In this document: piece after piece, positions 1-53,733 of the stretch
Layout: each line of letters starts with the position of its first letter
Position numbering within the stretch: the stretch's first letter is position 1
NCBI GenBank assembly: GCA_964425275.1
Contig: CAYRLZ010000060.1
Coordinates: 1-58,347 of the forward strand
DNA from: an uncultured bacterium
GTDB lineage: Bacteria; Hydrothermota; Tepidihabitantia; Tepidihabitantales; JBDRVQ01
Reading direction: 5' to 3'
DNA: 58,347 bases
Made by a program: the position numbers and the translations under genes
The notes under the pieces: model-generated
What the model was told of the DNA's origin: nothing
Database searches by the model: none
What the model saw: only the letters and a program-made list of their open reading frames with translations

Positions 1-2694
1 GAAATCCTTAAAACCGCCTCTCCCACGGATATGATTACGGTAATCGTCCGAACCAAAGAGCAAGCCGACCTTACCCTTTTGCCTCCTACTGCCACTTATG
101 ATGAAAAACTTGAATACCTGAAATTCGTTGCCGAAAGGGCGCAGCGAGATATTCTTGCCTATCTCAAAACCGTGAAGGCGACGGATATTAAAAGTTATTC
201 ACTTGTTTCCGACATCGTCTTAAAGACAACACCGGAGGTGATTAAGAAATTAGCCGAAAGGGAAGATGTTGATTTTATTACCGATGACTTTGTGGTAAAG
301 ATTCACGACCACTGGCCAGGCGAGCAAGTTGCGAGGGATGCGACCGATGCCCCGGAGTGGAATATTACTAAGGTGAGTGCGGATGCCTGCTGGGCGGACG
401 GCTATACCGGACAAGGTGTTGTTGTCTCCAACCTTGACACCGGGGTTGATGTCTCCCATCCGGCATTTGGCAACCGGTGGCGCTCAACCGATGGTTGGTT
501 TGATGGTGTCAACGGTCGGACAACTCCCTACGATGACAATGGGCACGGCACCCATACGATGGGAACGATTACCGGTGGTGATGGCTTGGGTCCTTTTACT
601 AATGATATCGGGGTTGCCCCGGGCGCGACCTTCATTGCGGCCAAGGGGTTTAACTCCAGTGGCTCTGGTCAAGCCACCTGGATAATTGCTTGTTTTAACT
701 GGCTTGCCCAGACCGGTCGCCCCAATGTTGTTTCTAATTCCTGGGGAGGTTCCCGCACCACCACTACCTGGTGGCAATATATTGTTAATTTAAGAAACCT
801 AGGGATTGTTGTTGTGGTTTCAATTGGCAACTCTGGTCCTAATGGGTCAACTTCTAACTCACCCGGGAATTTCCCAATAGTGATTGGTGTCGGAGCAACC
901 GATGCCGCTGATAACATCGCCAGTTACTCCAGTCGTGGACCGGCTCCTAACCAAGACCCCTGGAATAACCCAGCTAACTGGCCAAGACCTGACTGGAATT
1001 TAATAAATCCGGCAATATCGGCCCCTGGTTCTGGTGTCCGCTCCGCGGCTCCGGGTGGCGGTTATGCCAGTATGAGCGGCACTTCTATGGCTTGCCCCCA
1101 TGTTGCTGGCGCGGTTGCCTTGATGCTGGAAAAACGGGCTAATATCAGCCCGGATGAGGCATTCAATCTCATTACCGATAATTGTGACCGTCCTTCTCAG
1201 GGTGGGACCTATCCCAACAATAACTATGGCTGGGGAAGATTGAACTGTAAAAAAGTTCTGGATGCAATGGTTCCGGCCAATCGCCCGAATATTCTCCTCT
1301 CCCGAACCGACATAACTGGTGACCCAAATAATAACCACCGCCTTGACCCGGGTGAGACCGGAAATCTTATAACCTATCTCAGAAATACATCAGCCGTTCC
1401 GGCAACCAATTTAAGGGGAATTTTAAGGACTACTGACCCTTATCTGACAATCTCTGATTCTACGGCTAATTATGGAAATGTTGGTGGTCAGGACAGCACC
1501 AATAACTTAACTGACCCCTATGTTTTGACCGCGAGTAGTTCCACACCACCTGGTTATACCGCAAACCTTTCCCTTTACTTAGTTTGCGATGAGACATCCT
1601 GGACCAAACCATTCTCCTTAACCATTGGTCAACCCCCACCGCAACCCGGGCAAAAAATCTGGGGACCAAGGCAGGTTTCCGGAACACCGAGCGGGGCTGG
1701 ACTTTATGGGCTTGCCTATAATCCAACCAATGACCGGATATATGTCTGCCACTTCCGAGCCCGAACCATCTTTATTTATTCCTCTGATTCTTTGCTTACC
1801 TCCTTTGGCACTATCCCAACACCAAACAATGAGACCGCCTGCACTGATATAAAATACTGTGCCTATGACAATACCTTCTGGGTTGCCTCTAATCAGACGA
1901 AACGGGTTTATAAAATATCCGCTACGGGAACGGTTCTTCGGCAATTTGCCAATCCGGCAAACGACTATCCTACTGGACTTTGTTGGGACGAAAACGAAGG
2001 TCTTCTCTATCTGGCTGACCGAAGGGCAGTTGGTGTTCAGCCTGGTTATATCTATGTCGTTGATACCTTGGGCACTCAAATCCGGCGGATGACTATTCCT
2101 TTGAGCGCCAATGTTGGTCCGCGTGGTTTGGCATTAGAAGTGTCAACCGGCAATCCTGACCGACCAACCCTTTGTCACCTCTATACCTCTTTTAATGCCG
2201 CGGGTAATGCAGTTGATAGTGTTGGCGTCTATGAGTTAAAGCGGGATGATATCTCAATCTTGCAGCGCTTTCTTATCACTGAAAGGTATAATGCCCGAGG
2301 TGTTGAATATGACCCAAGGGATGCCAGCCTCTGGGTGACGATAATGGAAATGGCCGCGGGAGGTCCTAATAACTACATCATAAAATATACTGGCTTCCAT
2401 GAGCAGACCGGTGTTGAAGAGCCGAAATTACCGCTCAGAGATATATCGGGTGTGCGTTGTTTTCCCAATCCCTTCAACAAATCCCTAACCATCTCCTATC
2501 AGTTAAAGAAGTCATCGGATGTTCGGGTATCAATCCACGATGTTACTGGGAGAATGCTTACCTGCCTCCAGAAAGGCAAACTGAATTCAGGAATCTATCA
2601 TCACACCTGGAATGGGGAGAATGTCTCCGGTATCTACTTTGTGAATATCCGCACGAATCAGGAGAACCTCTGGTATAAGGTAATCAAATTCTAA
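1..2694 (+). CDS. Secreted subtilisin-like (S8) serine protease with a beta-propeller-like region and a T9SS C-terminal sorting domain. The 5' end probably runs off the window.
   Basis: ORF 31..2694. The frame stays open back to nt 1, and there is no signal peptide at the first in-window Met. Triad motifs DTGVD, HGTHTMGT and GTSMACPHVAG are present. The N-terminal segment looks like a propeptide. The C-terminus (FPNPFNKSLTISY...SGIYFVNI) matches the T9SS type A CTD pattern. Confidence 0.85.
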   Translation, partial: EILKTASPTDMITVIVRTKEQADLTLLPPTATYDEKLEYLKFVAERAQRDILAYLKTVKATDIKSYSLVSDIVLKTTPEVIKKLAEREDVDFITDDFVVKIHDHWPGEQVARDATDAPEWNITKVSADACWADGYTGQGVVVSNLDTGVDVSHPAFGNRWRSTDGWFDGVNGRTTPYDDNGHGTHTMGTITGGDGLGPFTNDIGVAPGATFIAAKGFNSSGSGQATWIIACFNWLAQTGRPNVVSNSWGGSRTTTTWWQYIVNLRNLGIVVVVSIGNSGPNGSTSNSPGNFPIVIGVGATDAADNIASYSSRGPAPNQDPWNNPANWPRPDWNLINPAISAPGSGVRSAAPGGGYASMSGTSMACPHVAGAVALMLEKRANISPDEAFNLITDNCDRPSQGGTYPNNNYGWGRLNCKKVLDAMVPANRPNILLSRTDITGDPNNNHRLDPGETGNLITYLRNTSAVPATNLRGILRTTDPYLTISDSTANYGNVGGQDSTNNLTDPYVLTASSSTPPGYTANLSLYLVCDETSWTKPFSLTIGQPPPQPGQKIWGPRQVSGTPSGAGLYGLAYNPTNDRIYVCHFRARTIFIYSSDSLLTSFGTIPTPNNETACTDIKYCAYDNTFWVASNQTKRVYKISATGTVLRQFANPANDYPTGLCWDENEGLLYLADRRAVGVQPGYIYVVDTLGTQIRRMTIPLSANVGPRGLALEVSTGNPDRPTLCHLYTSFNAAGNAVDSVGVYELKRDDISILQRFLITERYNARGVEYDPRDASLWVTIMEMAAGGPNNYIIKYTGFHEQTGVEEPKLPLRDISGVRCFPNPFNKSLTISYQLKKSSDVRVSIHDVTGRMLTCLQKGKLNSGIYHHTWNGENVSGIYFVNIRTNQENLWYKVIKF

Positions 2695-2714
2695 AAAGAG
2701 GAGAAAAATAAGAA

Positions 2715-2745
2715 GGCGGGAGAGATTTCTCCCGCCTTTTCTTTT
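2715..2745 (+). terminator. Rho-independent terminator, possibly bidirectional
   Basis: GGCGGGAGA (2715-2723), loop GATT, TCTCCCGCC (2728-2736), then TTTTCTTTT. An A-rich run lies on the other side. Confidence 0.7.
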
Positions 2746-2760
2746 ACTTGTGTAAGGCTA

Positions 2761-2928
2761 AGAAGGAGATTTAGAGGAGGACACAGAAAGAGGCACAGGG
2801 AGGGGAAGAAAGAACCTAACAGGGAGCCGGTCAGGAGGAGATAGAGAAGGGGGCTGAGAAAGGAGAAGAGAGGATAAGGAGATAGGGAAAAGGATTAGGG
2901 AAGGGATAGAGAAAGAGACAGGGTAAGA
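2761..2928 (-). repeat. Degenerate distal part of array A1. The 12-nt lattice fades into a polypyrimidine (minus strand) / polypurine (plus strand) tract.
   Basis: The plus strand is almost pure A/G. In-register 12-mers GATAGGGAAAAG, GATTAGGGAAGG, GATAGAGAAAGA and GACAGGGTAAGA lie at 2881-2928. There are many AGGAG/GGA motifs. Confidence 0.7.
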
Positions 2929-3144
2929 GACCGATAATAGCACTCCCAATAGGACGTTTTATAGGACCAAGAATAGCATCACCAATAGCATCCGGAATAG
3001 GACGGAGAATAGGAAAGGGAATAGAACACTCAGTAGGAAAGAGAATAGGATTCCCAATAGGTAAGAGAATAGAATCCTGAATAGAACCCCAAATAGGAAA
3101 GAGAATAGGGATTAGAATAGGACATTTAATACCATCCCGAATAG
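2929..3144 (-). repeat. Array A1: 18 phased 12-nt units with core CTATT (AATAG on the plus strand)
   Basis: Every plus-strand 12-mer from 2929 to 3144 ends in AATAG, with variants AATAC, AGTAG and TATAG. The strand given is the head-first orientation and is inferred. Confidence 0.9.
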
Positions 3145-3207
3145 CACCCCCTATACGACCCCCTATCTTTAAGGGAAAATCCCCTAAGTTTTGGATATTC
3201 AATCACT
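3145..3207 (-). other. A1 head: G-rich 12-mers AAGATAGGGGGT and CGTATAGGGGGT plus a conserved upstream block
   Basis: The minus-strand reading is AGTGATTGAATATCCAAAACTTAGGGGATTTTCCCTTAAAGATAGGGGGTCGTATAGGGGGT. It is homologous to the heads of A2, A3 and A4. Confidence 0.6.
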
Positions 3208-3282
3208 TAATACAAAAAATCGGGCTTAAAAAATATTACTGTCAGTAATATTTTCCTGGTATTCCCTTATGAACTCTTTGGA

Positions 3283-3314
3283 TAAAAAAACGCCCCACCA
3301 AAAAGATGGTGCGT
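3283..3314 (-). terminator. Rho-independent terminator of the Kelch-repeat gene
   Basis: The minus strand reads ACGCACCATCTTTTTGGTGGGGCGT followed by T7. It lies 17 nt after the stop at 3331. Confidence 0.6.
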
Positions 3315-3330
3315 CTCCTTTTCAGTCAGG

Positions 3331-4908
3331 TTATTTTATAACCACAAGTTTCTTATCTTCTTTATAGCCTTTGGTCTTAAACCGCAAGAGATAGATTCCC
3401 GCTGGTAGTCTTCTAATAGTAAATAGACCTTTATTCGTCTTTGCTGAATAGATAACTTCACCTAAGATATTGTAGATTTTTAAGGTCGCCATCTCATTCT
3501 TCGGCCAATTGTAATAAACAGTTGTGAAGCCTCTTGTTGGGTTGGAGTTAATCCGGATAGAAGTCGGGCGACTTAATTCCTGATGAGTTCCGGTATTGGG
3601 CAGTGAGGCAAGTAGAGTCGTCGTTCCGATATATTTATAGATAACATTGGTATTATTCCCCTTAATTGCGTAGATACTGCCGTCAAATGTGCAGAGCCCA
3701 CCGCCACCTTTCACATATTTCCTCTCGCTTCCCTTGGGAATCGTATCCTTAGGAACCCAGGCATCATTTGCCGGGTCATACATCCAGAACTCTTTTGTAT
3801 TATTGCCTTTGAAGGCATAGATTTTGCCATTCCAGAGGGTCATTGCAGCGCCTTCGCCGACCTTTTTACTTTTTCGGCAATAGGGATGGATAAAGGGCAT
3901 ACTCTCTTTTTTCGACCAGGAATCACCTTCTGGGCAGTATTGGTAGAATTCATTATATTTTCCCCGCAGGGCATAGATATAACTTCCATCCGAGACTAAA
4001 CAACTGCCGTCACCGTAACCTCTATCGGTTCCGACAATTTCTCGCGCATCTTTTCTTTTTTCCCAACTGTCGCCGGCGATATTAAACCGATAGAATTCCT
4101 TGGTCTTTGAGCCTTTCAAGAGATAGACAAAACCGTTCTGATAAGCGATGCCGGTTCCACCCTTCAATCCCTTTATCCCTGGGACACTGTCTAACTCCTG
4201 CCAGACAGCCGTTGCCCGGTTATAGCGCCAGAATTCCTTGGTTCCAGTTCCTGGGACAATATAAATATTGGTTAAGCCGTCGTCGGTAATACCCGAGCCT
4301 TTCCTTAGGCCGAGTTTATTTTTAATCGGAATGCTGTCAATCCAGAGTGGTGTGGTTCCTGGGAGGTAGGAATAAAAACTCTTTGTATTGTTCCCTTTTA
4401 TGATATAGATTTTGTCACCGGCGGTAATACACCCGCCACCTTTAATCTTCTTTCCATCACCAGTGGTTGGCACAGTATCGGAAAGTTTCTGCCAGTCGCT
4501 GACCGGTCGCGGGATATTTGCCACAGTCACCGAATCGGTCTTTTTATCATTATCCGGATTTTCATCTAAGTCAAGGCAGGTTGTGCATCGGGTAGTAAAG
4601 GTGCCGAGTGGTTGCGCTACCCACGGGTCAAAATAGACTGTTGTCTCCCAGTTTCGGTAGAGCGTCTTTTCTACGGTTTTTGTGCAGGAATAGGCATCAC
4701 CAATCTTAAAGATGACATCAAACCAGGCTACCGGGTCGGTCCCGACATTTTTAATTCGGGCGCGGGGGATGATTGTATCACCAAGTGGGACAGTGCCGGT
4801 CGGGGCATAGATTCTTATCGTTGCCACATCAAACTCTTCCTGTGCCTCACTACTTGTCAGTAGTCCTAAAATAATAAGTAGGGCAATTACTCCGAGTTTC
4901 TTTTTCAT
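3331..4908 (-). CDS. Secreted Kelch-repeat (beta-propeller) protein with T9SS CTD
   Basis: The ORF is 3331..4965. The preferred start is ATG 4908 (MKKKLGVIALLIILGLL signal peptide) preceded by AGGAGG. Repeated IY..KGNNTKEFW.Y blades are present. The C-terminal CTD contains LKIYNILGEVIY...AGIYLLRF. Confidence 0.8.
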   Translation of the reverse strand: MKKKLGVIALLIILGLLTSSEAQEEFDVATIRIYAPTGTVPLGDTIIPRARIKNVGTDPVAWFDVIFKIGDAYSCTKTVEKTLYRNWETTVYFDPWVAQPLGTFTTRCTTCLDLDENPDNDKKTDSVTVANIPRPVSDWQKLSDTVPTTGDGKKIKGGGCITAGDKIYIIKGNNTKSFYSYLPGTTPLWIDSIPIKNKLGLRKGSGITDDGLTNIYIVPGTGTKEFWRYNRATAVWQELDSVPGIKGLKGGTGIAYQNGFVYLLKGSKTKEFYRFNIAGDSWEKRKDAREIVGTDRGYGDGSCLVSDGSYIYALRGKYNEFYQYCPEGDSWSKKESMPFIHPYCRKSKKVGEGAAMTLWNGKIYAFKGNNTKEFWMYDPANDAWVPKDTIPKGSERKYVKGGGGLCTFDGSIYAIKGNNTNVIYKYIGTTTLLASLPNTGTHQELSRPTSIRINSNPTRGFTTVYYNWPKNEMATLKIYNILGEVIYSAKTNKGLFTIRRLPAGIYLLRFKTKGYKEDKKLVVIK

Positions 4909-4971
4909 AATTCCTCCTTTAGGATTTGTCCCTAACCAAAAGTCCTTCTTTTTTCTCTTCACCACTTTCTA

Positions 4972-4999
4972 AGCATAGCAGAAATTAGAAAAAAGTCAA
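4972..4999 (-). promoter_or_regulatory. sigma70-type promoter for the Kelch gene (about 60-nt leader with SD)
   Basis: Minus strand: TTGACT, 16 nt, TATGCT. Confidence 0.5.
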
Positions 5000-5048
5000 C
5001 GGTTAAAAAAATTCGGGAAGGCTAATTGGCGGTGGTGTGTTGGCAGTC

Positions 5049-5077
5049 TTGACTTTTGGGAAATAAGAGGGTATAAT
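5049..5077 (+). promoter_or_regulatory. sigma70-type promoter, 9 nt upstream of ATG 5087
   Basis: TTGACT (5049-5054), 17 nt, TATAAT (5072-5077). Confidence 0.6.
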
Positions 5078-5086
5078 ATTAAATAG

Positions 5087-6415
5087 ATGAAAGGAAGGCA
5101 AACAGCCACTTATGGAGGATTGGCGGTCAATAGATTAATCTCAATCTCTTGGTGGCGGGCATTCATAATCGGGCAGTTTTTGGGTATGGTGTCGGGATTT
5201 CCAATGTATAATCTCTATTATGGTAATCTCCATTCCCACACATCTTATTCTGATGGTCGGGGCACCCCCCGTCAGGCCTTTGCCTATGCCCGAGATACCG
5301 CCCGGATTCATATCTTGGCAGTAACCGACCACGGTGAGATGCTTTCCTCCGCCGAATGGGAAGATATTAAGAAACAAGCCGATTCCGCCACGAAGCCTGG
5401 TCAATTTTTAGGGCTGGCCGGGTTTGAATGGACAAGTCGGGATGGACATATCAATATCTTTAATACCTCCGATTACACCTCAGCGCATCAAAACCCAACC
5501 GTTGGTTCAATTTATGAGTGGCTGGCAAATAGGAATAATGCAATAGGCCAATTCAACCATCCGGGCGGTCCTTATCTCTTCAATAACTTCCGGCACAGTT
5601 CTATTGGCGATATTTCTATGACTCTTTTTGAAATTCAGAACCGCCACCAAGCCGAGGTTTATTATGTTGCCTTGGATAGTGGCTGGCGGGTTGGGATTTC
5701 AGCAAATCAGGATAATCACTTTCCGGACTGGGGCAAAGGGCATCAACTGACCGGTATCTGGGCCGAGAGTTTAACGAAGAGTTCAATCATTTCGGCGATT
5801 CAAAATAGACGCACCTTTGGAACTCTGGACAGGGATTTTCAACTCTGGTTCAAGGCAAATGACCAATGGATGGGTTCAACCATCCCTAATGGTGAGGTTC
5901 AATTTGAGGTCTTTGCCTTTGACCCGAGCCTTGCCGATTTCATCCGCCGAATTGATATTATAACGAACAATAATGTTGTATTGGATTCCCTTATTTTAGG
6001 TAATACAAATTATGCTCGGTGGCAGACCCGAACCTACACCAATTCGACGGCGAGGAAATATTTCTTTGTCCGGGTAATTGAGAACGATAGTGATTATATC
6101 CTCTCTTCGCCGATATGGACAAAGGGCGGTGGTATCTTAGAAGATGGCGAATATAAAATTTTCCCCAACCCATTTATTTCATCCATTACCTTTAACTTCA
6201 ATTCCATTCACCAGAGAAGTTTAGACGAGATAAAAATCTATTCAGTGAGTGGAAAGGAGATTAAATCCTTCTTACCAAAGTTACCAGTTCGTTGGGCGGG
6301 TGAGGATAAAGCCGGGAAAAAGGTTCCCGCCGGTGTATATTTTGTGGTTTTTAGGATAGGCAATAGCCAGTGGTGTGAAAAGATTATTCGGTTGAATAAA
6401 CCAATAGTAAAATAG
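5087..6415 (+). CDS. PHP-domain metallophosphoesterase-like protein with T9SS CTD
   Basis: YYGNLHSHTSYSDG and AVTDHGE motifs (PHP fold). C-terminal FPNPFISSITF...AGVYFVVF CTD. Confidence 0.75.
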   Translation: MKGRQTATYGGLAVNRLISISWWRAFIIGQFLGMVSGFPMYNLYYGNLHSHTSYSDGRGTPRQAFAYARDTARIHILAVTDHGEMLSSAEWEDIKKQADSATKPGQFLGLAGFEWTSRDGHINIFNTSDYTSAHQNPTVGSIYEWLANRNNAIGQFNHPGGPYLFNNFRHSSIGDISMTLFEIQNRHQAEVYYVALDSGWRVGISANQDNHFPDWGKGHQLTGIWAESLTKSSIISAIQNRRTFGTLDRDFQLWFKANDQWMGSTIPNGEVQFEVFAFDPSLADFIRRIDIITNNNVVLDSLILGNTNYARWQTRTYTNSTARKYFFVRVIENDSDYILSSPIWTKGGGILEDGEYKIFPNPFISSITFNFNSIHQRSLDEIKIYSVSGKEIKSFLPKLPVRWAGEDKAGKKVPAGVYFVVFRIGNSQWCEKIIRLNKPIVK

Positions 6416-6533
6416 TTAGGAGAGATTTTAATTGCTTTCATCTTCCTCACTAATTTGTCAGGAGTAAGAGTCTTTTTATTCCTTTTTGGGTTAAACCGCA
6501 GGGCATTTGCTTCTTTAGGTAAAGTCGATAGCA

Positions 6534-7010
6534 ATGGCGAAATACTGTTTTCGGCCGGGATGCCAGTTTAATTTTATCCAGGGAGAAAAAATGGGCGCTT
6601 GTTACCAATCGGTTTGGATTGCTGGTTCTTTACTTTTAAGATTTTTTCAGTATATATTATTTATGCTATTACTTACTCCCTTTTTCGTCTTTTTCTCGGA
6701 TACGATGGTGGTTAAAAAGGTAGATACGGTTTGTTATAATGAGATTAAGGATAAGTGGATTGCGGAAGATAAGTTCTGGCACTTCGGGATGAGCGTCGCC
6801 TTAGTTGGCTCGTCCTATCATTTATTTAAGTGCCGGCTCAATGAAGAAAAAAATCGGTCAACTATTTTCTCTCTTGGTGGGACATTCTCACTCGGGATTA
6901 TGAAAGAGTTCTGGGATAGAAGCCGACCCAAGGGGCACTTCAGTTATCGGGATATTGTTGTCAACCTATTAGGAATTGGTGTTGGCTATTTGATTTTTAT
7001 CTATGATTGA
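6534..7010 (+). CDS. Small membrane protein of unknown function
   Basis: ORF with hydrophobic segments and a DKFWHF...KEFWD pattern. The start is uncertain. It overlaps the trmI start by 8 nt. Confidence 0.45.
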   Translation: MAKYCFRPGCQFNFIQGEKMGACYQSVWIAGSLLLRFFQYILFMLLLTPFFVFFSDTMVVKKVDTVCYNEIKDKWIAEDKFWHFGMSVALVGSSYHLFKCRLNEEKNRSTIFSLGGTFSLGIMKEFWDRSRPKGHFSYRDIVVNLLGIGVGYLIFIYD

Positions 7011-7803
7011 AGCCGGCGAACTCGTCCTTTTGTATAATTCGGAGAACACCCAGTATTTATTCACTTTGCCCAAAGAAGGGCAGTTTTCTACGCATAAGGG
7101 GAATATCTCATTTGCCGAGGTGCGGGAGAAAGATTTTGGTGATAAGATTTTAAGTTCAACCCATACCCCTTTCTATATCCTCCGGCCGACCCTAAAAGAT
7201 ATTGAGATGAAGGTGAAGCGAAAGACAACAATCATTTATCCCAAGGATGCCGGCTTTATTATCTTAAACTCTCACATCTTTCCCGGGGCAAAGGTATTAG
7301 AAGTGGGAACTGGGTCTGGTGCCTTCACGATAATCTTAGCCAATTTTGTCCGACCCGATGGTAAGGTCTATTCTTATGAAGTTCGGGAAGAGTTCTTAGA
7401 ACTGGCCAGAGAAAATCTGAAAAAGGCACACCTTTTAGAATATGTGGAACTAATCAAGAGAGATGTGGCAAAAGAAGGGTTAAATCTCCCTTCGGTCGGG
7501 CATAAAGGGGAATGGGGTGATTGTGTGTTCGTTGATGTTCCTTCTCCCTGGGAGTTAGTCAGGGAGTGCCACTCCGTCCTAAAAGGTGGGGCGACCTTTG
7601 CTTCGCTCTCCCCGAATATTGAACAGGTGCAAAAGACGGTAAGGGTCTTAGAACTTGAAGGGTTTGTTAGGATAAAGGTCTTTGAGATATTAGAAAGGGA
7701 GGTTATGGTCAGGCTCTCCGGAACAAGACCAAAGGAGAGGGGAATTGTCCATACCGCTTATTTGGTCTTTGCTCAGAAGGTGAAGAAAGATTGGGCAATT
7801 TAG
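7003..7803 (+). CDS. trmI: tRNA (adenine-N1)-methyltransferase, TrmI/Gcd14 family
   Basis: SAM motif VLEVGTGSGAFT, then VFVDVPSPWE and an N-terminal beta domain typical of TrmI. Confidence 0.8.
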   Translation: MIEAGELVLLYNSENTQYLFTLPKEGQFSTHKGNISFAEVREKDFGDKILSSTHTPFYILRPTLKDIEMKVKRKTTIIYPKDAGFIILNSHIFPGAKVLEVGTGSGAFTIILANFVRPDGKVYSYEVREEFLELARENLKKAHLLEYVELIKRDVAKEGLNLPSVGHKGEWGDCVFVDVPSPWELVRECHSVLKGGATFASLSPNIEQVQKTVRVLELEGFVRIKVFEILEREVMVRLSGTRPKERGIVHTAYLVFAQKVKKDWAI

Positions 7804-7805
7804 TA

Positions 7806-8651
7806 ATGGGGCAATTAAGTAAAAAGACTTTTCTATTTTGTTCTTTTATCGGTTTATTGCTCCTCCTTTTTTGCGCACGGGGGACAAAGAAGAAACTATC
7901 CTTACGGGTTGTTTCCCTTGTGCCTAGTATCACTGAGGTAATATTTGCCTTGGGAAAAGAATCGCTTTTGGTTGGCAATACGATATATTGCGATTATCCA
8001 GAAGGGGCAAAGAAAATCTATAAGGTGGGAGATTTTATCAATCCTTCCTTAGAAAAGATAGTTGCCTTAAGACCGGATATCGTCTTTTTAACCTTGCCCG
8101 CCCAGAAGATTATTCAAGAGAAATTGAACACCTTAAAGATAAAGACCTTTGTCTCCCAGCCAAAAGATTTTGAGACAATGCTTGACGAGATAAAAGAAAT
8201 CGGAAGGCAATTAGGGGCAGAGAAGCGGGCTTGCTCTTTGAGCCATTTTTTGCAAGAAGCAAAGGAGAAGATAAGATTTCCCCCAATTAAGGTCTACATT
8301 GAAATCTCTCCCCAGCCAATAATTTCCATCGGAAAGAAATCTTTTCTCTCGGATATTTTGGAAAAACAAGGATTAAAAAATATATTCTCGGACATAGAAG
8401 AGGAATATCCGATAATAAGGATTGAGGATATTATAAAGAGAGACCCAGAGGTTGTCCTTATCCTCCATCCCTTGTCAAGAAAAGAGGAGGTGAAAAAAAG
8501 GCTCGGGTTGGAAAAGGTAAAGGCGGTGCAGAGTGGGCAGATAATTGATGAGATAAATCCTGACCTCTTATTAAGACCGGGACCGAGGATTATTGAAGGA
8601 TTAAAGATGCTCCACTCAATTTTGAGTTCAAAACCGGGGCATGAGAAATAA
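7806..8651 (+). CDS. ABC transporter periplasmic binding lipoprotein (BtuF / iron-siderophore type)
   Basis: ATG at 7806 (the track ORF starts at TTG 7791). Signal peptide with LLLFC lipobox. RVVSLVPSITEVIFALG is typical of cluster A binding proteins. Confidence 0.75.
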   Translation: MGQLSKKTFLFCSFIGLLLLLFCARGTKKKLSLRVVSLVPSITEVIFALGKESLLVGNTIYCDYPEGAKKIYKVGDFINPSLEKIVALRPDIVFLTLPAQKIIQEKLNTLKIKTFVSQPKDFETMLDEIKEIGRQLGAEKRACSLSHFLQEAKEKIRFPPIKVYIEISPQPIISIGKKSFLSDILEKQGLKNIFSDIEEEYPIIRIEDIIKRDPEVVLILHPLSRKEEVKKRLGLEKVKAVQSGQIIDEINPDLLLRPGPRIIEGLKMLHSILSSKPGHEK

Positions 8652-9564
8652 CCCCTCTTTACTCCTCTTTCCTTTAATCGCGATTATTTTTTTATCCCTC
8701 TCCTTAGGACCGGGGGGCGTGAGGGGGGAGATAATTTTTAAGATAAGACTGCCTCGGGTTCTTTTAGGGATTTTTGCCGGCGGGGTCTTATCATTTGTTG
8801 GCGGTGTCTTACAGGGTCTTTTAGAAAATCCGCTCTGCGACCCTTATATCCTGGGTATCGCCTCGGGCGCAACATTTGGCGTTAGTCTTTCCCTCCTCTT
8901 CGGTCACGTCTCCTATTTTTTCATTCCACCTTTTGCCTTTGCCTTTTCGCTTCTCTCCCTCTTTTTTGTTTATACCCTGGCGCAGGTTTCGGGTCGGATT
9001 CAGAAGTTATCCCTTATCCTTTCCGGAGTTCTCATCAGTTTCCTCTTTTCCTCCCTCTCCATTTTGGCGATGACTTTCAGTAAACAGCCCTTGGCACAAA
9101 TTATCTATCTCATTATGGGAAATCTATCGGTTTTATTTTCTCCTTTAACCCTAATGAGTTTTTTGATTGTTTTTATCATTAGTCTCATCTTGCTTTATTT
9201 CCTTTTCTCCTATGCCCAGGAGCTTAATATTTTGTCTACGGGGGAAGAAGCGGCAATCAGTGTTGGTATTGATACCGAGCGACTGGTCCGAATGGTCTTT
9301 ATTATCAGTTCCCTTTTGACTGGTTTTGTCGTCTCTTTTGTTGGCAGTATAAGTTTTGTTGGACTAGTGGTTCCCCATATTGCCCGGGCTCTTTATGGAT
9401 ACGACCATCGGAAAATTCTTCCGGCCTCCTTCCTTTTAGGTTCATCTCTCCTTTTAATTTCGGATATCTTTGCCCGCACGACCGCACCGGTGGAATTACC
9501 TTTAAGTGTCGTCACGGCACTTTTTGGTGTGCCATTTTTCTTTTATCGGTTAAGAAGGTTATAA
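8641..9564 (+). CDS. FecCD/BtuC-family ABC permease
   Basis: Polytopic membrane protein with the conserved FecCD-like C-terminal part (VGLVVPHIAR, LPLSVVTALFGVPFF). Confidence 0.85.
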   Translation: MRNNPSLLLFPLIAIIFLSLSLGPGGVRGEIIFKIRLPRVLLGIFAGGVLSFVGGVLQGLLENPLCDPYILGIASGATFGVSLSLLFGHVSYFFIPPFAFAFSLLSLFFVYTLAQVSGRIQKLSLILSGVLISFLFSSLSILAMTFSKQPLAQIIYLIMGNLSVLFSPLTLMSFLIVFIISLILLYFLFSYAQELNILSTGEEAAISVGIDTERLVRMVFIISSLLTGFVVSFVGSISFVGLVVPHIARALYGYDHRKILPASFLLGSSLLLISDIFARTTAPVELPLSVVTALFGVPFFFYRLRRL

Positions 9565-9585
9565 GCCCAATGATATTCTTTGATT

Positions 9586-10368
9586 ATGGACGCTATTCTT
9601 CTTAAAGAGCTAAGTTTCGGCTATACCAAAGAGAATCTATTTCAGAATTTTTCTCTGAGTATCCCGGAGGGTGATTTTTTGGGTATAATTGGACCAAATG
9701 GCTCAGGCAAGACGACTTTATTAAAGTTAATTGCTGGCCTATTAAAATCTACGAGCGGGCAGGTATTGGTTTTCGGAGAGGACCTTTTTCATCGGAAACC
9801 AAAAGAAAGAGGACGGTTGATTGGTTATATGCCCCAGGAGAGTCACTTCTTATGGAATTTTAAGGTAAAGGAGGTCGTTCTGATGGGTCGGTATCCCTAT
9901 CATAGAAGATTTGAGCGGGAGAAGCGAGAGGATTTTGAGATTGCCGATTTAGCGATGAGATTGACCAATATTATTGATTTGAAAGACCGGGGAATAAATA
10001 ATATCTCAACCGGTGAAAGACAGAGGGCGGTTTTGGCTAGGGTTTTATGCCAGAACCCTAAGATTTTACTCTTAGATGAGGTAACCTCTCATTTAGATAT
10101 TGGTCAGGCGATTGAGATTTTGAGAATCTTACGACACCTCAATACCACTTATAAAATTACCTGTCTCTTTTCGTCCCACGATATAAATTTAGCGGCAATG
10201 GTTGCCAAACGGATTTTACTCCTCGCAAAAGGACAGGTGATTGCCTGTGACCGACCGGATAAGGTTATTCTACCGGAACTATTAGAGAAGGTTTATAGCA
10301 TCCGGCCATTAATCACCACTCACCCTAAATTAAATATCCCTTGGGTTATCCTTAATCTCCGGGAATGA
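9586..10368 (+). CDS. ABC transporter ATP-binding protein (FecE/BtuD type)
   Basis: Walker A GPNGSGKTTLLK, signature STGERQR, Walker B ILLLDE. ATG at 9586. Confidence 0.85.
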   Translation: MDAILLKELSFGYTKENLFQNFSLSIPEGDFLGIIGPNGSGKTTLLKLIAGLLKSTSGQVLVFGEDLFHRKPKERGRLIGYMPQESHFLWNFKVKEVVLMGRYPYHRRFEREKREDFEIADLAMRLTNIIDLKDRGINNISTGERQRAVLARVLCQNPKILLLDEVTSHLDIGQAIEILRILRHLNTTYKITCLFSSHDINLAAMVAKRILLLAKGQVIACDRPDKVILPELLEKVYSIRPLITTHPKLNIPWVILNLRE

Positions 10369-10411
10369 AGTATTTATCTGTCGTCTCATATTTTTATTAT
10401 TCACCCAGGTT

Positions 10412-11599
10412 TTAAAACCTTGTCATTAAGAACACCCAGACTAAACCAATCAGTCCGACGAGGAGAACCGATGGGATAAGTTTTTTATACACGGCACGGG
10501 AATCGGCATTAAAATACTCTTTGGTCAAAAGGAGACAGAAGTGAACTGGTGATAAGAGGACCCCCATATACCCAGCGATATAAAAGATAAGTATGTAAAA
10601 AAGTTTATGGACGAGGGGAATGATACTCATTATTAATGGCAGGGAAAGTCCAACATAAGCCTGGTTTATCCCGGTGGCAAAACCAGTGAGGAAGGGGATA
10701 GTGGTCGCTATCAATATAATAAAGATTGTTTCTAATTTATCAATCTCAGGAAATGAGACACTTTTTATAAATATCTCCTTAAATAAAAATATTAGGAAGA
10801 CAATTAGCAGGATTTTTGCCGAGAAGCCCTTTAGGGTAATTCGTCTCTTTTTATAGATGATGATGAATATTAAGATAAGGGTGGTCAACAAAAGGGCAAT
10901 GAAGGCATCAATTCCAACAATTATCAAAATGGTAATCAAGGCGATGGGCAGAAATGAAAAGAGAAGTTGGAGGTGATTTATTCTTTCGGCGTTTGTGATA
11001 TCGGTAATCATTCGGCTCTCGTCCCGGAGAAAAAAGAGTCCAATGAAAATTGAAATAATGGTGAGGGGAAATAGATAGACCATTAGGGTCTTTATCGGAA
11101 TCCCGGATATTGCCGAAGTGAGTATTAGACCAGGATAAAGTGGCCAGAAGAATTCCCAGATATGTCGGAACCAGTAATTGATATAGGTCTTGGTTACCTC
11201 AGAGATATTTTCCTTCTTTAACTGTATCTCAACCAACGGTGCCGAGAGTAGTGCCCCACCGGGCATTGGCACAAGTCCGATTATTACCGGAGCTAAAAGG
11301 ACAGCGTATCTACGCTTTTTAATCTTAACCAATTCTTTCTCCATCAGATTTAGTAAAGATGAACTCGCCATTAAGCAAGAGAAGATAAGAGAGAGGAATA
11401 CAATACCAATGACCCGCCAGGTATCCCAACTGACGACGGTTTGATAGAAGATATTGAGGAATTCTCTAAGACTTACCCCAAAGAGAATAACCGAAATTAA
11501 ATTTGCGACCAAGAGGACAATCGTCAGGTCTAATTTCCGAAGCATCAAGAGAAGAACCAAAGCAAAGAGGAGGGTTAGTCTCAAGAATACTAACTGCAC
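10412..11599 (-). CDS. Polytopic membrane protein, putative permease
   Basis: 395-aa ORF that is hydrophobic throughout (10 or more predicted TM segments). GTG start at 11599, with an alternative ATG at 11545. Confidence 0.55.
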   Translation of the reverse strand: MQLVFLRLTLLFALVLLLMLRKLDLTIVLLVANLISVILFGVSLREFLNIFYQTVVSWDTWRVIGIVFLSLIFSCLMASSSLLNLMEKELVKIKKRRYAVLLAPVIIGLVPMPGGALLSAPLVEIQLKKENISEVTKTYINYWFRHIWEFFWPLYPGLILTSAISGIPIKTLMVYLFPLTIISIFIGLFFLRDESRMITDITNAERINHLQLLFSFLPIALITILIIVGIDAFIALLLTTLILIFIIIYKKRRITLKGFSAKILLIVFLIFLFKEIFIKSVSFPEIDKLETIFIILIATTIPFLTGFATGINQAYVGLSLPLIMSIIPLVHKLFYILIFYIAGYMGVLLSPVHFCLLLTKEYFNADSRAVYKKLIPSVLLVGLIGLVWVFLMTRF

Positions 11600-29636: not shown

Positions 29637-29808
29637 TTGTTAAATCAATAACTTATATTTTTTGGCAATTTATATCGGGAGGTAAAAATGAAAGGATTAA
29701 ACTGACACCTAAGGCGTAAAGCGTAGAGCGTTAAACGTATAGCGTATTTTCTAATTCGCACCGCAGGGGATTTTTCTTTTTGGAAAGGGGGGAGTGCTAC
29801 AGGGGGTG
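29637..29808 (+). other. A2 leader/head
   Basis: TTGTTAAATCAATAACTTATATTTTTTGG (29637-29665). Five GCGTA-like heptads (29713-29746). GGGGATTTTTCTTTTTGGAAAGGGGGGAGTGCTACAGGGGGT (29766-29808) is homologous to the A1 head. Confidence 0.55.
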
Positions 29809-30024
29809 CTATTCGGGATGGTATTAAATGCCCTATTTTCTACCCTATTCTCTTGCCTATTCGGAATTCTATTCGGTAGCCTATTCTCTTGCCTATTGGT
29901 AATTCTATTCTTTATCCTATTGAGCGTTCTATTCCCTTTCCTATTAGGAGTTCTATTCTCGGTCCTATTGGGGATGCTATTGTGAGTTCTATTCTCTTTC
30001 CTATTCTATGTTCTATTCTTGGAG
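29809..30024 (+). repeat. Array A2: 18 phased 12-nt units with core CTATT
   Basis: CTATT (once GTATT) occurs at 29809 + 12n for n = 0..17. Collinear with A1. Confidence 0.9.
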
Positions 30025-40643: not shown

Positions 40644-40835
40644 ATTTTCAATTAGACTTGGAATTAGAAAGAGAATTAGAGAGAGAATTACTAACCCAAT
40701 TAGTTAAAGAATTAGTCTGACAATTAGACACTTAATTACCCTTTCGGTTTGGCAGAGGATTAGTTAGAGAATTAGACAGTAAATTAGGCATTCAATTAGG
40801 CTGGGGATTACGTAAAGAATTAGATAATAAATTAG
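40644..40835 (-). repeat. Array A3: 16 phased 12-nt units with core CTAATT (AATTAG on the plus strand)
   Basis: ATTAG/ATTAC occurs on the plus strand at 40651 + 12n. One unit lacks the core (CAAACCGAAAGG). Confidence 0.9.
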
Positions 40836-40911
40836 ACCCAAAAGGCAACCCAGAGGGCTACCCCCTATCTTTCTTAAAAAATCAAATAAGTTATGTTAAA
40901 TCAAAGACTTA
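40836..40911 (-). other. A3 head: conserved block plus AAGATAGGGGGT, AGCCCTCTGGGT and TGCCTTTTGGGT
   Basis: About 90% identical by hand alignment to 50376-50450. Confidence 0.6.
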
Positions 40912-41005
40912 GGAGTAAAAATCGGACCTTGAAAACTATAACTATTGTTATAGAACTTTTGTTCGGGTCGTAATTAATATGTTTCCCTTGTGGTATGTGG
41001 ATATC

Positions 41006-50159: not shown

Positions 50160-50375
50160 CTAATCAATTAGGTAGAGAATTAGACTCGGAATTAGACTAT
50201 CAATTAGACCGAGAATTAGACAGAGGATTAGCCACAGGAGTACTTCTTCCATTAGTTAGAGAATTAGGATGGCGATTAGACACTTAATTAGCCTTTCGGT
50301 TAGAAAAAGAATTAGTTAGAGAATTAGCCGCTCAATTAGTATCTGGATTAGGCGGAGAATTACACCGAGAATTAA
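50160..50375 (-). repeat. Array A4: 18 phased 12-nt units with core CTAATT
   Basis: ATTAG or a variant occurs on the plus strand at 50167 + 12n. It contains the same core-less unit CTAACCGAAAGG followed by CTAATTAAGTGT as A3. Confidence 0.9.
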
Positions 50376-50450
50376 ACCCGGAAGGCGACCCAGAGGGCAA
50401 CCCCCTATCTTTTTAAAAAATCCCATAAGTTCTGTTAAATCAAAGGCTTA
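50376..50450 (-). other. A4 head: conserved block plus AAGATAGGGGGT, TGCCCTCTGGGT and CGCCTTCCGGGT
   Basis: See the A3 head. The minus-strand reading is TAAGCCTTTGATTTAACAGAACTTATGGGATTTTTTAAAAAGATAGGGGGTTGCCCTCTGGGTCGCCTTCCGGGT. Confidence 0.6.
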
Positions 50451-50471
50451 TACCAAAAAAGGGTATTTGGA

Positions 50472-50507
50472 AACCGGAAGTATATTTCTGGAAGTATACT
50501 TCTGGTT
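50472..50507 (-). terminator. Long hairpin between the lnt-C25 gene and the A4 head; possible terminator
   Basis: AACCGGAAGTATA / TATACTTCTGGTT arms (one G-T pair) with a 10-nt loop. On the minus strand a T6 run follows only after 12 nt, so this is not canonical. Confidence 0.3.
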
Positions 50508-53600: not shown

Positions 53601-53733
53601 GCGATGACTTTGTAATCAAATAAAAGAGCGGGACTAAGGAGAAGTAGGCGAGGAAGCGGAAGGGAAAAGGGGAAAAGGCAAGGTTTAAGGCGAAGGGCGA
53701 GAGAAAGAAAAGAACTTTCCCAAACTTACCCAT
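50686..53733 (-). CDS. lnt: In-frame fusion of apolipoprotein N-acyltransferase (Lnt), C25 gingipain-like cysteine peptidase and T9SS CTD
   Basis: Residues 1-475 hold 8 TM segments and a CN-hydrolase domain (IYPETA, CLICFES, NITNDGWF). From Met476 (nt 52308) there is a signal-peptide-like segment, then C25 blocks (YLLLVGD..IP, VGRLP, YRGHASGNW, IIISGSCHT). The C-terminal CTD contains NIYDITGRLV...PGIYFFSL. Confidence 0.8.
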   Translation of the reverse strand: MGKFGKVLFFLSPFALNLAFSPFPFRFLAYFSLVPLFYLITKSSLKKALFYSFLFFFLFALFHLWWLYFLVVPVLEKTKFLLYLGVFVLFGYFGLYGLVFGLGVKKFGLFIAPLLWALLEFIRTKSEIGFPWGLLGYTQTPYLPLIQFASITGVYGLSAFVVFLNLIIYQLLFTRKKRWAITLILTFLIPLSYGLLRMKGVENNFKVAIIQPNVSPNEKGDRSTIEENIRSLLQLTQEAIKEKPFLLIYPETASLFDLTKEIWLKDEFLRISQTYGVYILIGTPIYEDNAYFNGAVLIDPENGITGIYKKIHPVPFSERIPYIDKFPIFKPFATADMGNFTPGKEFTVFSTPLAKASCLICFESIFPDLTREFVLRGADLLVNITNDGWFGKTPGPYQHCELAVMRSVELGKPLLRSANNGISLIVSPYGEVIKKTPLFTEMVLYGNLPKPLPSTFYLRFGDWFIYLSIIILILRMAGGSLHRRKSVGLLIFVFSAVIVNGATDCRYLIITNEKFFDALQPLKEWKTKKGVKAEIVKVPYRASPDSIKRIIKSIGPEYLLLVGDKNYIPPGDSLYYSYQLLLGDNFYGDMEGDYRAEIPVGRLPCRNVDECQTMVQKILTYERFPKREDTLWYKRATLIFMWDFGGRPANPIYSEEFPYDDSILRLRYSKVDTIFNDTLFGHQGYDDADDIIASLNEGSSLVLYRGHASGNWAYPFTVEPEDERLQNGYKLPIIISGSCHTIFKSENTVGERWLRVKGGGEDLKGAVAFFGTQLGGGFGRWRGRFVRTFLRTVMVNDNLILGKAFLRGKDSIASPPYSGDANEYFYREWSLLGDPELNIWTKVPKPMVVSHKFLGSQIFVVEVKDSITGQPIPKALVCLTKPLSPDFYYYGTTDKDGQIKFPINGEERDEIIITVTAPNYLPYESPLFSLTYSNPFRQRTNIRYQIPNRQWLSLNIYDITGRLVRPITRGVKEPGIYTATWDGKDQRKRSLPPGIYFFSLQTKDFSISRKVILIK

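Follow-up and report, generated by a model that had tools for sequence, protein, structure and literature searches.

Several described bacterial systems resemble in part the repeat array reported here. The CsrB/CsrC, RsmX/Y/Z and CrcZ transcripts are non-coding RNAs of a few hundred nucleotides that carry 8-22 motif copies, frequently occur as paralogues and bind one protein multivalently; these motifs (GGA or A-rich CA) are irregularly spaced and mostly sit in hairpin loops. In the trp leader recognized by TRAP, 11 (G/U)AG triplets are arranged around an 11-mer ring, so that regular single-stranded motifs match the number of subunits; there the 11 repeats recur every 5-6 nt, act in cis as the 5' leader of an operon and serve a known protein. 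The partition centromeres parC (with ParR) and tubC (with TubR) consist of strictly spaced head-to-tail repeats, each 10-12 bp long, carry a cooperative protein filament and overlap a promoter; they hold 4-10 iterons, with one site per replicon beside the par or tub genes. The pneumococcal BOX A-B(n)-C elements, REP/BIME and ERIC are intergenic and multi-copy, measure a few hundred bp, follow a head-repeat-tail plan and break assemblies; their units are tens of bp long and form hairpins, and strains differ in how many copies they have and where these lie. ToxI and CRISPR loci place a direct-repeat array behind a leader or promoter within one transcript, the ToxI units being structured, 34-36 nt long and located beside a toxin gene, and the CRISPR repeats measuring 23-50 nt, with spacers of ~30 nt and accompanying cas genes.

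The locus analysed here, array A1, lies in a window of 58,347 nt (the whole stretch of DNA that was analysed) from an uncultured bacterium. It belongs to a family of non-coding phased repeats that occurs in many copies and several classes in a clade of candidate division WOR-3, and this family is previously undescribed: nothing relevant to such arrays was found in the literature that was searched, and the array matched nothing in Rfam, either at the gathering threshold or at E <= 10. Its parts and boundaries are as follows.

2711-2740, both strands: intrinsic terminator working in both directions, shared with the S8 protease gene that converges on the element
2761-2929, minus strand: tail, the remnant of a third-class, near-pure C/T array that has lost its own leader and is joined to the class-1 array
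2930-3145, minus strand: class-1 body of 18 in-phase 12-nt units
3146-3169, minus strand: G-rich head, AAGATAGGGGGT (3169-3158) followed by CGTATAGGGGGT (3157-3146), both in phase
3170-3255, minus strand: conserved 86-nt leader, GATTTTT...TAAGT..TTGAnT...ACTTA..GGATTTT...
3232-3252, minus strand: class-1-specific perfect palindrome AATATTACTGACAGTAATATT, then a T-run, at the 5' edge of the conserved element
3295-3311, minus strand: terminator of the upstream Kelch/T9SS gene, a boundary outside the element

Read on the minus strand, 3169-2930 is a 12-nt array without gaps, head then body, and its sequence and coordinates agree with those given by the first-pass annotation. Class-1 units have the form [C/G/T]CTATT, five variable nucleotides and T; the core is exactly CTATT in 15 of the 18 body units, the three variants being GTATT, CTACT and CTATA. 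The strict 12-nt periodicity that had been described is borne out by autocorrelation, since identity at lag 12 reached 0.594 in the body against 0.28 +/- 0.027 (maximum 0.39) in 2000 shuffles. Lags 24, 36 and 48 likewise gave 0.59, and the remaining lags 0.17-0.32. The proposed alternation of pyrimidine-rich and purine-rich spacers also held for CTATT arrays as a class (Y-to-R 42 times and R-to-Y 37 times vs 8 Y-to-Y), as did the proposed polarity, the array keeping a fixed orientation relative to its conserved leader and head.

The conserved part extends beyond 3207, the leader running from ~3255 to 3170. Inside the leader is an inverted repeat, TAAGT-N15-ACTTA, and the centre of the palindrome AATATTACTGACAGTAATATT, CTGACA, aligns with the -35 element TTGACA of the homologue L178. 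Perfect palindromes of 18-21 bp, each specific to its class, are found at a fixed distance upstream of the arrays. As for the two terminators said to box the element in, terminator-like hairpins are indeed present at both places, but each is the terminator of a neighbouring gene. Only 6 of 18 family members have a terminator in the sense orientation within 220 nt, so it was rejected as a feature of the family.

The tail contains 85% C+T (7% G and 43% C), and its 12-nt period is weaker yet significant (0.52 vs 0.37 +/- 0.037, with 0 shuffles as high). Rather than the decaying end of a single array, it represents a distinct third-class array that is free-standing in L154 and L162, where it possesses its own leader and terminator; the homologue of the tail is the free-standing array at ~4971-5100 of L154. 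Judged from these sequences, A1 is a fusion of a third-class array onto a class-1 array.

A sliding scan of the 58-kb window identified exactly four period-12 arrays, and none at lags 9-11, 13-15 or 18. The three besides A1 are:

29782-30021, plus strand: A2, class-1 paralogue whose head is a variant form, 5'-truncated and without the conserved leader, with an in-frame TAG in the 'Ile' frame
40644-40963, minus strand: A3, class 2, core CTAATT, with a leader carrying the class-2 palindrome CTATAACAATAGTTATAG
50160-50474, minus strand: A4, class 2, core CTAATT, leader present

At least 20 further arrays were found in related WOR-3 contigs, and 18 of 23 matches to the head pattern in metagenomes were real arrays. 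The classes have the cores CTATT, CTAATT or YTAAT, in addition to the near-pure C/T class. Each array comprises ~20-21 units, indels involve whole 12-nt units only, and a leader of ~90 nt is common to the copies other than the truncated A2. Scanning genome contigs with the head pattern returned chance matches only, the species representatives lacking this exact head, and a body-only pattern (CTATT x4) was too unspecific to serve as a family search. A phage or plasmid origin was likewise discarded, as there were no blastn matches and the pattern matches in viral contigs were all due to chance. The arrays fragment WOR-3 metagenome assemblies and give rise to spurious 'hypothetical protein' calls (P0122, P0125 and P0126).

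Three of the four window arrays face a convergent gene, and the downstream genes are convergent or housekeeping. The flanking genes encode an S8 protease, a Kelch protein, RNase HII, RlmN, an EPSP-synthase-family enzyme, AhpC, a phosphoribosyltransferase and an Lnt-C25 fusion. No recurrent gene was found adjoining the arrays, T9SS cargo genes being simply common, and neither cas genes nor par/tub-like genes adjoin them.

That the stretch is non-coding, as first annotated, is borne out by stop statistics, fixed wobble codons and protein searches. Stop codons are avoided in none of the six frames. Positions that would be wobble positions are fixed (CCT 93/94, GCT 40/40, TCT 48/48, ATT 171/187, CTA 132/137), while the same codons in the window's real genes account for 19%, 15%, 27%, 45% and 8%, respectively. 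No protein family for the array was detected in 5.8 billion proteins; a search of 1.84 billion proteins returned one spurious read-through ORF as the sole homologue, along with three unrelated low-complexity proteins, and Pfam gave no match. Coding in any of the six frames is rejected by the stops, the codon usage, the lack of a start codon and these two large protein searches. In particular, it is very improbable that the array encodes a small protein of tetrapeptide repeats, which would read (P/S/A)-I-x-x when xCT ATT is taken in frame and would be initiated at a non-canonical start behind the SD-like AGGGGGU. In its favour, 12 nt corresponds to four codons; a 123-aa ORF is open at 2831-3202, the 'Ile' frame is without stops in 9 of 10 class-1 arrays, and the head resembles two Shine-Dalgarno sequences, each with an in-frame AUA or AUU 4 nt further on. 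However, position-specific base composition accounts for the scarcity of stops in class 1 (2 observed vs 4.8 expected, P = 0.1), and class 2 has 18 in-frame stops vs 16.6-16.8 expected. In-frame stops lie directly upstream of the head, ATG, GTG and TTG are absent, the fixed codon choice is unlike that of the window's real genes, and no gene was called across the array in the JGI contig. The 58-aa ORF called in L178 matches only its near-identical orthologue.

The locus is kept beside the Kelch gene in the relatives L159, L155, L177, L178 and L182. Between A1 and its orthologue in L159, core positions are 94-100% identical and the leader 98.8%, while spacer positions 9-12 are 47-63% identical, near the level seen at the third positions of Kelch-gene codons (64%). 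The element is real, non-coding and vertically conserved, with its core, phase and leader under selection.

The transcript proposed earlier stands as plausible in so far as perfect TTGACA-N17-TATAAT promoters are present in L178/L182 and L180, 60-70 nt upstream of the head and reading into the array; in the lineage of the window itself, the promoter does not match sigma-70 well. Because perfect promoters in distant homologues point into the array, transcription is likely, and it is plausible that A1 itself would be transcribed from its leader. In L178/L182 and L180 a hairpin and T-run are also found at the far end of the array. No conserved RNA structure was detected in the arrays (RNAalifold, -16.7 and -13.4 kcal/mol over ~290 nt) or in the leader (-2.9 kcal/mol), and neither showed covariation. 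Fold z-scores were within the range of dinucleotide shuffles; mononucleotide shuffles overstated structure. Folding is weaker in the purine-rich, C/U-rich and class-3 arrays than in 96-100% of random genome segments, and many arrays are depleted in C or in G. For class 1, G-U pairs let the sense strand fold better than its antisense counterpart, which makes some RNA structure possible. Local pairing of neighbouring Y and R units into hairpins was dismissed, the excess being marginal (complementarity at 1.5 of 3 positions vs 1.3 when shuffled), and pairing between head and C/U tail, between class 1 and class 3 or between purine-rich and pyrimidine-rich arrays of one genome did not exceed the level set by composition (z -1.0 to +0.4). 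A weak CsrC match covers the terminator at 2650-2753, outside the array.

The best reading of these observations, a tentative one with a little under an even chance, is that the array provides an unstructured RNA on which an oligomeric protein would find multivalent binding sites in phase. The element comprises a highly conserved AT-rich leader of ~90 nt with promoter-like elements, the G-rich head (AAGATAGGGGGT in A1) and ~21 units of 12 nt, each with an A/T-rich core of 5-6 nt (CTATT, CTAATT or YTAAT) and then a spacer with almost no constraint on its evolution. Transcription from the leader would produce a largely unstructured RNA of ~250-350 nt, which may act as a sponge or scaffold; its partner would be an RNA-binding protein, oligomeric or filament-forming, that would nucleate at the head or leader and then contact one core every 12 nt. 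Spacer composition swaps between purine-rich and pyrimidine-rich while the core and phase persist, and this survival fits a spacer that is only a linker. A more specific version, possible though unlikely as a whole, is that the arrays are genes for a 'ruler' or scaffold RNA, present in tens of copies per genome in the WOR-3 clade, whose ~21 units template a homo-oligomeric filament or ring of defined size, with the leader and head nucleating it. One subunit (or half-dimer) would then occupy each 12-nt unit, and the core classes (CUAUU, CUAAUU and C/U-only) might recruit different paralogous proteins.

The conservation of a leader without structure, together with the perfect palindromes, has the look of DNA protein-binding sites, and on this point a role at the DNA level fits equally well. 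A sequence-specific protein nucleating at the class-specific palindrome or leader might polymerise cooperatively over 12-bp iterons of duplex DNA, as in ParR-parC or TubR-tubC, or the array might be a datA-like titration site or a nucleoid-organising site; taken overall this is possible but unlikely. The class-specific palindromes at their fixed upstream distance, the inverted repeat within the leader and the near-identity of a leader with no predicted RNA structure all speak for it. So do the strict phase and fixed unit number, which suit a protein filament on DNA, and the inconsistent terminators; the tubC centromere likewise consists of 12-bp iterons. It has more difficulty with the consensus promoters that fire into the arrays of L178/L182 and L180, and with spacer swaps around an oriented core, which alter duplex geometry and would be minor for a single-stranded linker. 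The arrays adjoin housekeeping genes and genes for T9SS cargo rather than par/tub-like genes, and several arrays of at least three classes in 58 kb would be unusual for a centromere.

Spread of a modular BOX/REP-like repeat, built of leader, internal tandem units and tail, through intergenic regions, selfish or neutral and without a dedicated cellular function, is improbable. Such an origin would accommodate the multiple intergenic copies with unrelated flanks, the breaking of assemblies at those copies, the truncation of A2, the fusion in A1 and the transposase fragments beside one pair of arrays. Yet orthologous copies stay beside the Kelch gene across species and genera, strong purifying selection acts on the core, phase and leader as the spacers drift, no indels of 1-2 nt have accumulated despite ~30% divergence, and neither terminal inverted repeats nor target-site duplications were seen. 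Still less probable is the suggestion, made for the tail in the first-pass annotation, that C/U-rich RNA serves in Rho loading or pairs with Shine-Dalgarno sequences. A Rho-loading module would be rut-like, with YC dinucleotides 12 nt apart. Rho binds ~12-13 nt per subunit, and C residues ~12 nt apart are a proposed feature of rut sites. The window arrays are unstructured and untranslated and contain more C than G (C/G 1.3-1.95 in the bodies of A1-A4 and 6 for the tail), intrinsic terminators are present in few arrays, and position frequencies place a pyrimidine before C2 (class 1) or C1 (class 2) in ~70-74% of units. A rut site is expected to be a C-rich, G-poor, unstructured and untranslated RNA at least 70-80 nt long; the tail of A1 has this character, and the bodies show it weakly. 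As a general role, Rho loading is contradicted by L178 and L180, which share phase, head and core and have purine-rich spacers; with C at only 4-9% and G at 24-30%, their composition is the reverse of that of a rut site. Shine-Dalgarno pairing was rejected, as an SD-like motif precedes 5 of 34 genes vs 4.4 expected by chance, so that SD usage in this genome is not above chance; the lack of specific head-tail or between-class complementarity noted above also tells against the suggestion.

If the preferred reading of a phased RNA scaffold is true, several loci in every 60 kb of an uncultured phylum, WOR-3, are given over to such elements. Their only conserved features, the leader, the 5-6 nt core and the exact 12-nt phase, would point to a molecular partner that is itself periodic, and no similar elements have been described. 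This would represent a new architecture in bacterial non-coding RNA and nucleoprotein biology, apart from CsrB-type sponges, TRAP, CRISPR, ToxI and centromeres, and the 'ruler' RNA, if real, would be a ribonucleoprotein architecture without a described bacterial counterpart. The array RNA or DNA may also provide a well-defined bait with which to find the protein partner even though these organisms cannot be cultured.

Set against the known systems, the arrays differ from CRISPR in a core of 5-6 nt and a spacer of 6-7 nt, and they contain neither repeats of 23-50 nt with unique spacers of similar length nor cas genes. Repeats of 34-37 nt upstream of an endoribonuclease toxin gene, as expected of a ToxI-like locus, are likewise absent, the units being 12 nt long with no associated gene. 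The arrays share with REP/BIME/BOX elements a multi-copy, intergenic distribution among unrelated flanks; unlike REP/BIME-type units, which are imperfect palindromes folding into stable stem-loops, theirs are 12 nt long and form no hairpins, the only palindrome being in the leader, and purifying selection keeps the units in order where orthologous copies occur. As in partition centromeres, there are short direct iterons, spaced at 12 bp without exception, but no partition operon adjoins them and the sites are more than one or a few: four arrays, each of ~21 units, occupy 58 kb, and they fall into at least three classes with strong inward promoters. Compared with CsrB-type RNAs, the spacing is exactly 12 nt without hairpins, the motif is CUAUU or CUAAUU in ~21 units behind a long conserved leader, and there is no matching Rfam model. 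The Rfam Csr/Rsm covariance models gave no match at the gathering threshold, and GGA occurs only 5 times in the 18 units of A1, 0 times in A3 and once in A4. The 9-11 (G/U)AG triplets, 2-3 nt apart in an operon leader, that define a TRAP site are not found in the arrays, which unlike TRAP sites have a 12-nt period and ~21 units, stand alone and occur in many copies. For the strict phase itself, TRAP is nonetheless the best mechanistic analogy.

Four arrays of in-phase 12-nt units, classed by the core of the unit, were recovered by a lag-12 scan of the window, and no array was found at any other lag.

A1, 3169-2930, minus strand, core CTATT (class 1)
A2, 29782-30021, plus strand, core CTATT (class 1)
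A3, 40871-40644, minus strand, core CTAATT (class 2)
A4, 50411-50160, minus strand, core CTAATT (class 2)

The first-pass annotation had described A1 as a head, 18 CTATT units of strict period and a tail between two terminators, and this description proved accurate. Read on the minus strand, A1 is an unbroken series of 12-mers without gaps, in which a head of two G-rich units, AAGATAGGGGGT then CGTATAGGGGGT, is followed by 18 units of the form (C/G/T)CTATT-N5-T. The period-12 autocorrelation that had been proposed gave a lag-12 identity well above that of shuffled sequence (0.594 vs 0.28 +/- 0.027); lags 24, 36 and 48 equalled lag 12, and no lag apart from these was prominent. The tail below 2929 (C+T 85%, G 7%) retains a weaker yet significant 12-nt period, and terminator-like hairpins flank the array at 2711-2740 and 3295-3311.

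In loci L154 (and L175) and L162 of related bacteria, the class-1 array closes with a clean terminator and is followed by an almost pure C/T array of a third class with a leader motif of its own. The A1 tail can be aligned to this third-class array, starting at GGTCTCTTACCCTGT, which identifies A1 as a fusion that no longer contains the end of the first array, the terminator or the second leader. The polarity noted earlier, a conserved head and a decaying far end, is thus an artefact of the fusion. Fragments of an IS3-type transposase or integrase, at L154 3655-4337, lie just upstream of the class-1/class-3 array pair of that locus.

Judged by homologues of the adjacent Kelch/T9SS protein, the source organism belongs to candidate division WOR-3, and the identical sequence is carried by JGI contig Ga0212092_1000343, with no gene calls over the array. 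A metagenome scan with the head pattern returned 23 loci, 18 of them genuine arrays, of both classes and from two metagenomes; the pattern gave only chance matches in genomes (one per species) and in viral contigs, and blastn against phage and plasmid collections gave no match. The head AAGATAGGGGGT is common to A1, A3 and A4, and the ~95 nt that precede the head are conserved as a leader between paralogues despite unrelated flanks. This leader opens with a perfect palindrome specific to its class (AATATTACTGnCAGTAATATT in class 1, CTATAACAATAGTTATAG in class 2) and a T-run, and continues as GATTTTT...CTAAGTCTTTGATTTnACAnnACTTAnnGGATTTTT...AAGATAGGGGGT. These palindromes, which may act as operators, as promoter elements or as insulating terminators, lie with their T-run ~83 nt upstream of every head:

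3232-3252, palindrome and T-run
40927-40944, palindrome and T-run
L154 4447-4467, palindrome and T-run

A2, which lacks the conserved leader, resembles a truncated copy; about five 7-nt units (GCGTAAA, GCGTAGA, ...) occupy the leader's usual place directly upstream of it, at 29710-29746. Arrays hold ~20-21 units throughout, and differ in length by whole 12-nt units. The first base of a class-1 unit is C, G or T, the next five are CTATT and the last is T in 78% of units. Class-2 units begin with CTAATT, and both classes have almost no C at positions 8, 10 and 11. The class-1 spacers tend to alternate between pyrimidine-rich (Y) and purine-rich (R) types, with 42 Y-to-R and 37 R-to-Y against 8 Y-to-Y transitions. 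Several metagenome contigs (L155, L156, L157, L162 and L177) stop within an array or where its leader lies. The arrays thus interrupt assembly, and counts of copies per genome come out too low.

Contigs surrounding more distant Kelch homologues bear arrays too.

L178 (GCA_039801905.1) and L182 (GCA_965649285.1), orthologous loci whose array is flanked by the Kelch gene and an rml-like operon
L180 (GCA_039801945.1), array upstream of rpmF
L179 (GCA_965649285.1), additional array

The heads of all four are homologous (…ACAGGGGATGG…) and precede 18-19 in-phase units built on the core YTAAT. Their spacers are purine-rich in L178 (4% C), its orthologue L182 and L180 (9% C), and almost pure C/U in L179. 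The array is absent from five other loci of relatives (L181, L183, L184, L186 and L187). Ahead of the L182 array, positions 1802-11437 hold three successive pairs of an unknown gene (370-689 aa) and a Kelch/T9SS gene, which look like a two-gene cassette amplified in tandem.

The array is kept beside the Kelch gene in relatives: L159 and L155 carry the orthologous locus, Kelch gene and array, from a related species, and L177 terminates in the same leader. Between A1 and L159, identity is 98.8% over the gap-free 86-nt leader, 96% in the head, 94-100% at core positions and 89-94% at unit positions 7-8, the two spacer bases that determine the Y or R type. It is 47-63% at positions 9-12, compared with 64% at third and ~87% at first and second codon positions of the Kelch gene, and thus spacer positions 9-12 evolve close to neutrality. 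The leader, core, first two spacer bases and phase are under purifying selection.

A gene for a repeat protein is suggested by the 123-aa ORF at 2831-3202, whose (P/S/A)-I-x-x frame is stop-free in nine of ten class-1 arrays. Against column-wise shuffles, which preserve position-specific base composition, this openness is not exceptional (2 stops vs 4.8 expected, P = 0.1); class 2 carries 18 in-frame stops (16.6-16.8 expected), and none of the remaining frames is clean. The would-be wobble positions are fixed, unlike those of the window's real genes: CCT (Pro) 93/94 vs 19%, GCT (Ala) 40/40 vs 15%, TCT (Ser) 48/48 vs 27%, ATT (Ile) 171/187 vs 45% and CTA (Leu) 132/137 vs 8%. The head holds no ATG, GTG or TTG, and several copies have in-frame stops directly upstream of it. 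No homologue of the ORF was found among 5.8 billion clustered proteins, and when 1.84 billion representatives were searched exhaustively with HMMER, the only related sequence was a spurious read-through ORF across a class-1/class-3 pair, returned alongside three unrelated low-complexity proteins. A 58-aa ORF called by NCBI within a homologous array matches only its near-identical orthologue. The constraint on the arrays acts on nucleotides rather than amino acids; the earlier non-coding assignment is borne out, the two protein searches found no protein family, and a repeat-protein gene is highly improbable. Arrays nevertheless yield spurious ORFs and database "hypothetical proteins":

L154 4514-4795, minus strand, 93-aa xxNR repeat antisense to the array
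L178 2240-2416 (plus) and L179 5622-5792 (plus), gene calls of 56-58 aa in NCBI MAGs
P0122, 178-aa read-through of a class-1/class-3 pair

Transcription of the sense strand has strong, though indirect, evidence behind it, because perfect TTGACA-N17-TATAAT promoters lie 60-70 nt upstream of the head in L178/L182 and L180, pointing into the array, with a hairpin and T-run downstream. In the window lineage the palindrome occupies the promoter's place, its centre CTGACA aligning with the -35 element of those loci, and no good sigma-70 match was found there; a sense-oriented terminator follows just 6 of 18 arrays. RNAalifold found neither conserved structure nor covariation in the arrays (-16.7 and -13.4 kcal/mol, ~290 nt) or the leader (-2.9), and single-sequence fold energies are inside the dinucleotide-shuffle range. 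Of random 240-nt genome segments, 96-100% fold more than the purine-rich, C/U-rich and class-3 arrays do; class 2 lies mostly at the low-structure end (7-33% of segments fold less) and class 1 is average. Complementarity is marginal between neighbouring Y and R units, and at composition level between head and tail, class 1 and class 3, or purine- and pyrimidine-rich arrays of one genome.

Across classes and genera, the invariants are the leader and head, a short A/T-rich core, the exact 12-nt phase and ~21 units, while spacers, whether purine-rich, pyrimidine-rich or alternating, drift freely. This is the pattern expected if a periodic partner, which would be an oligomer or filament of fixed subunit pitch, contacts a core every 12 nt, with the spacer as a mere linker. 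We tentatively favour an unstructured RNA platform, sponge or scaffold, at somewhat below even chances, because the arrays are read from consensus promoters pointing into them and many of the arrays are depleted in C or G, which prevents folding. A DNA-level array, ParR/parC- or TubR/tubC-like, or a titration locus, is a serious if less probable alternative, given a leader that is unstructured, almost invariant and full of palindromes. A BOX-like selfish repeat is unlikely, as orthologous loci are retained and selection keeps leader, core and phase. Less likely still are the Rho loading and Shine-Dalgarno pairing once suggested for the tail: as a general role the former fails on the C-poor L178 and L180, and the latter on Shine-Dalgarno usage at chance level (5 of the 34 ATG-start ORFs of the whole window, 4.4 expected). 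In several window genes a TATAAT-like hexamer precedes the ATG by just 10-20 nt, suggesting that their 5' leaders are short or missing.

Elsewhere in the window, a single 1015-aa ORF (50686-53733, minus strand) joins LNT_N and CN_hydrolase domains (apolipoprotein N-acyltransferase) to a C25 gingipain-like peptidase, a FlgD-Ig domain and a T9SS C-terminal sorting domain, an unusual fusion of an inner-membrane enzyme with a secreted protease.

Rfam holds no family matching the arrays, and a limited literature search found nothing relevant. The arrays lack the defining features of CRISPR arrays, ToxI-type antitoxins, Csr/Rsm sRNAs, TRAP sites and REP/BIME/BOX elements, and share with partition centromeres only strictly spaced iterons; tubC iterons, Rho site size and the motif spacing of TRAP and CsrB served as background. 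We rate the architecture as new in kind. Should the partner prove to be a conventional regulator that binds RNA, it would count instead as a further variety of protein sponge. Mechanistically, the favoured RNA platform comes nearest to the TRAP-binding leader in its phase and to CsrB or CrcZ in its multivalency.
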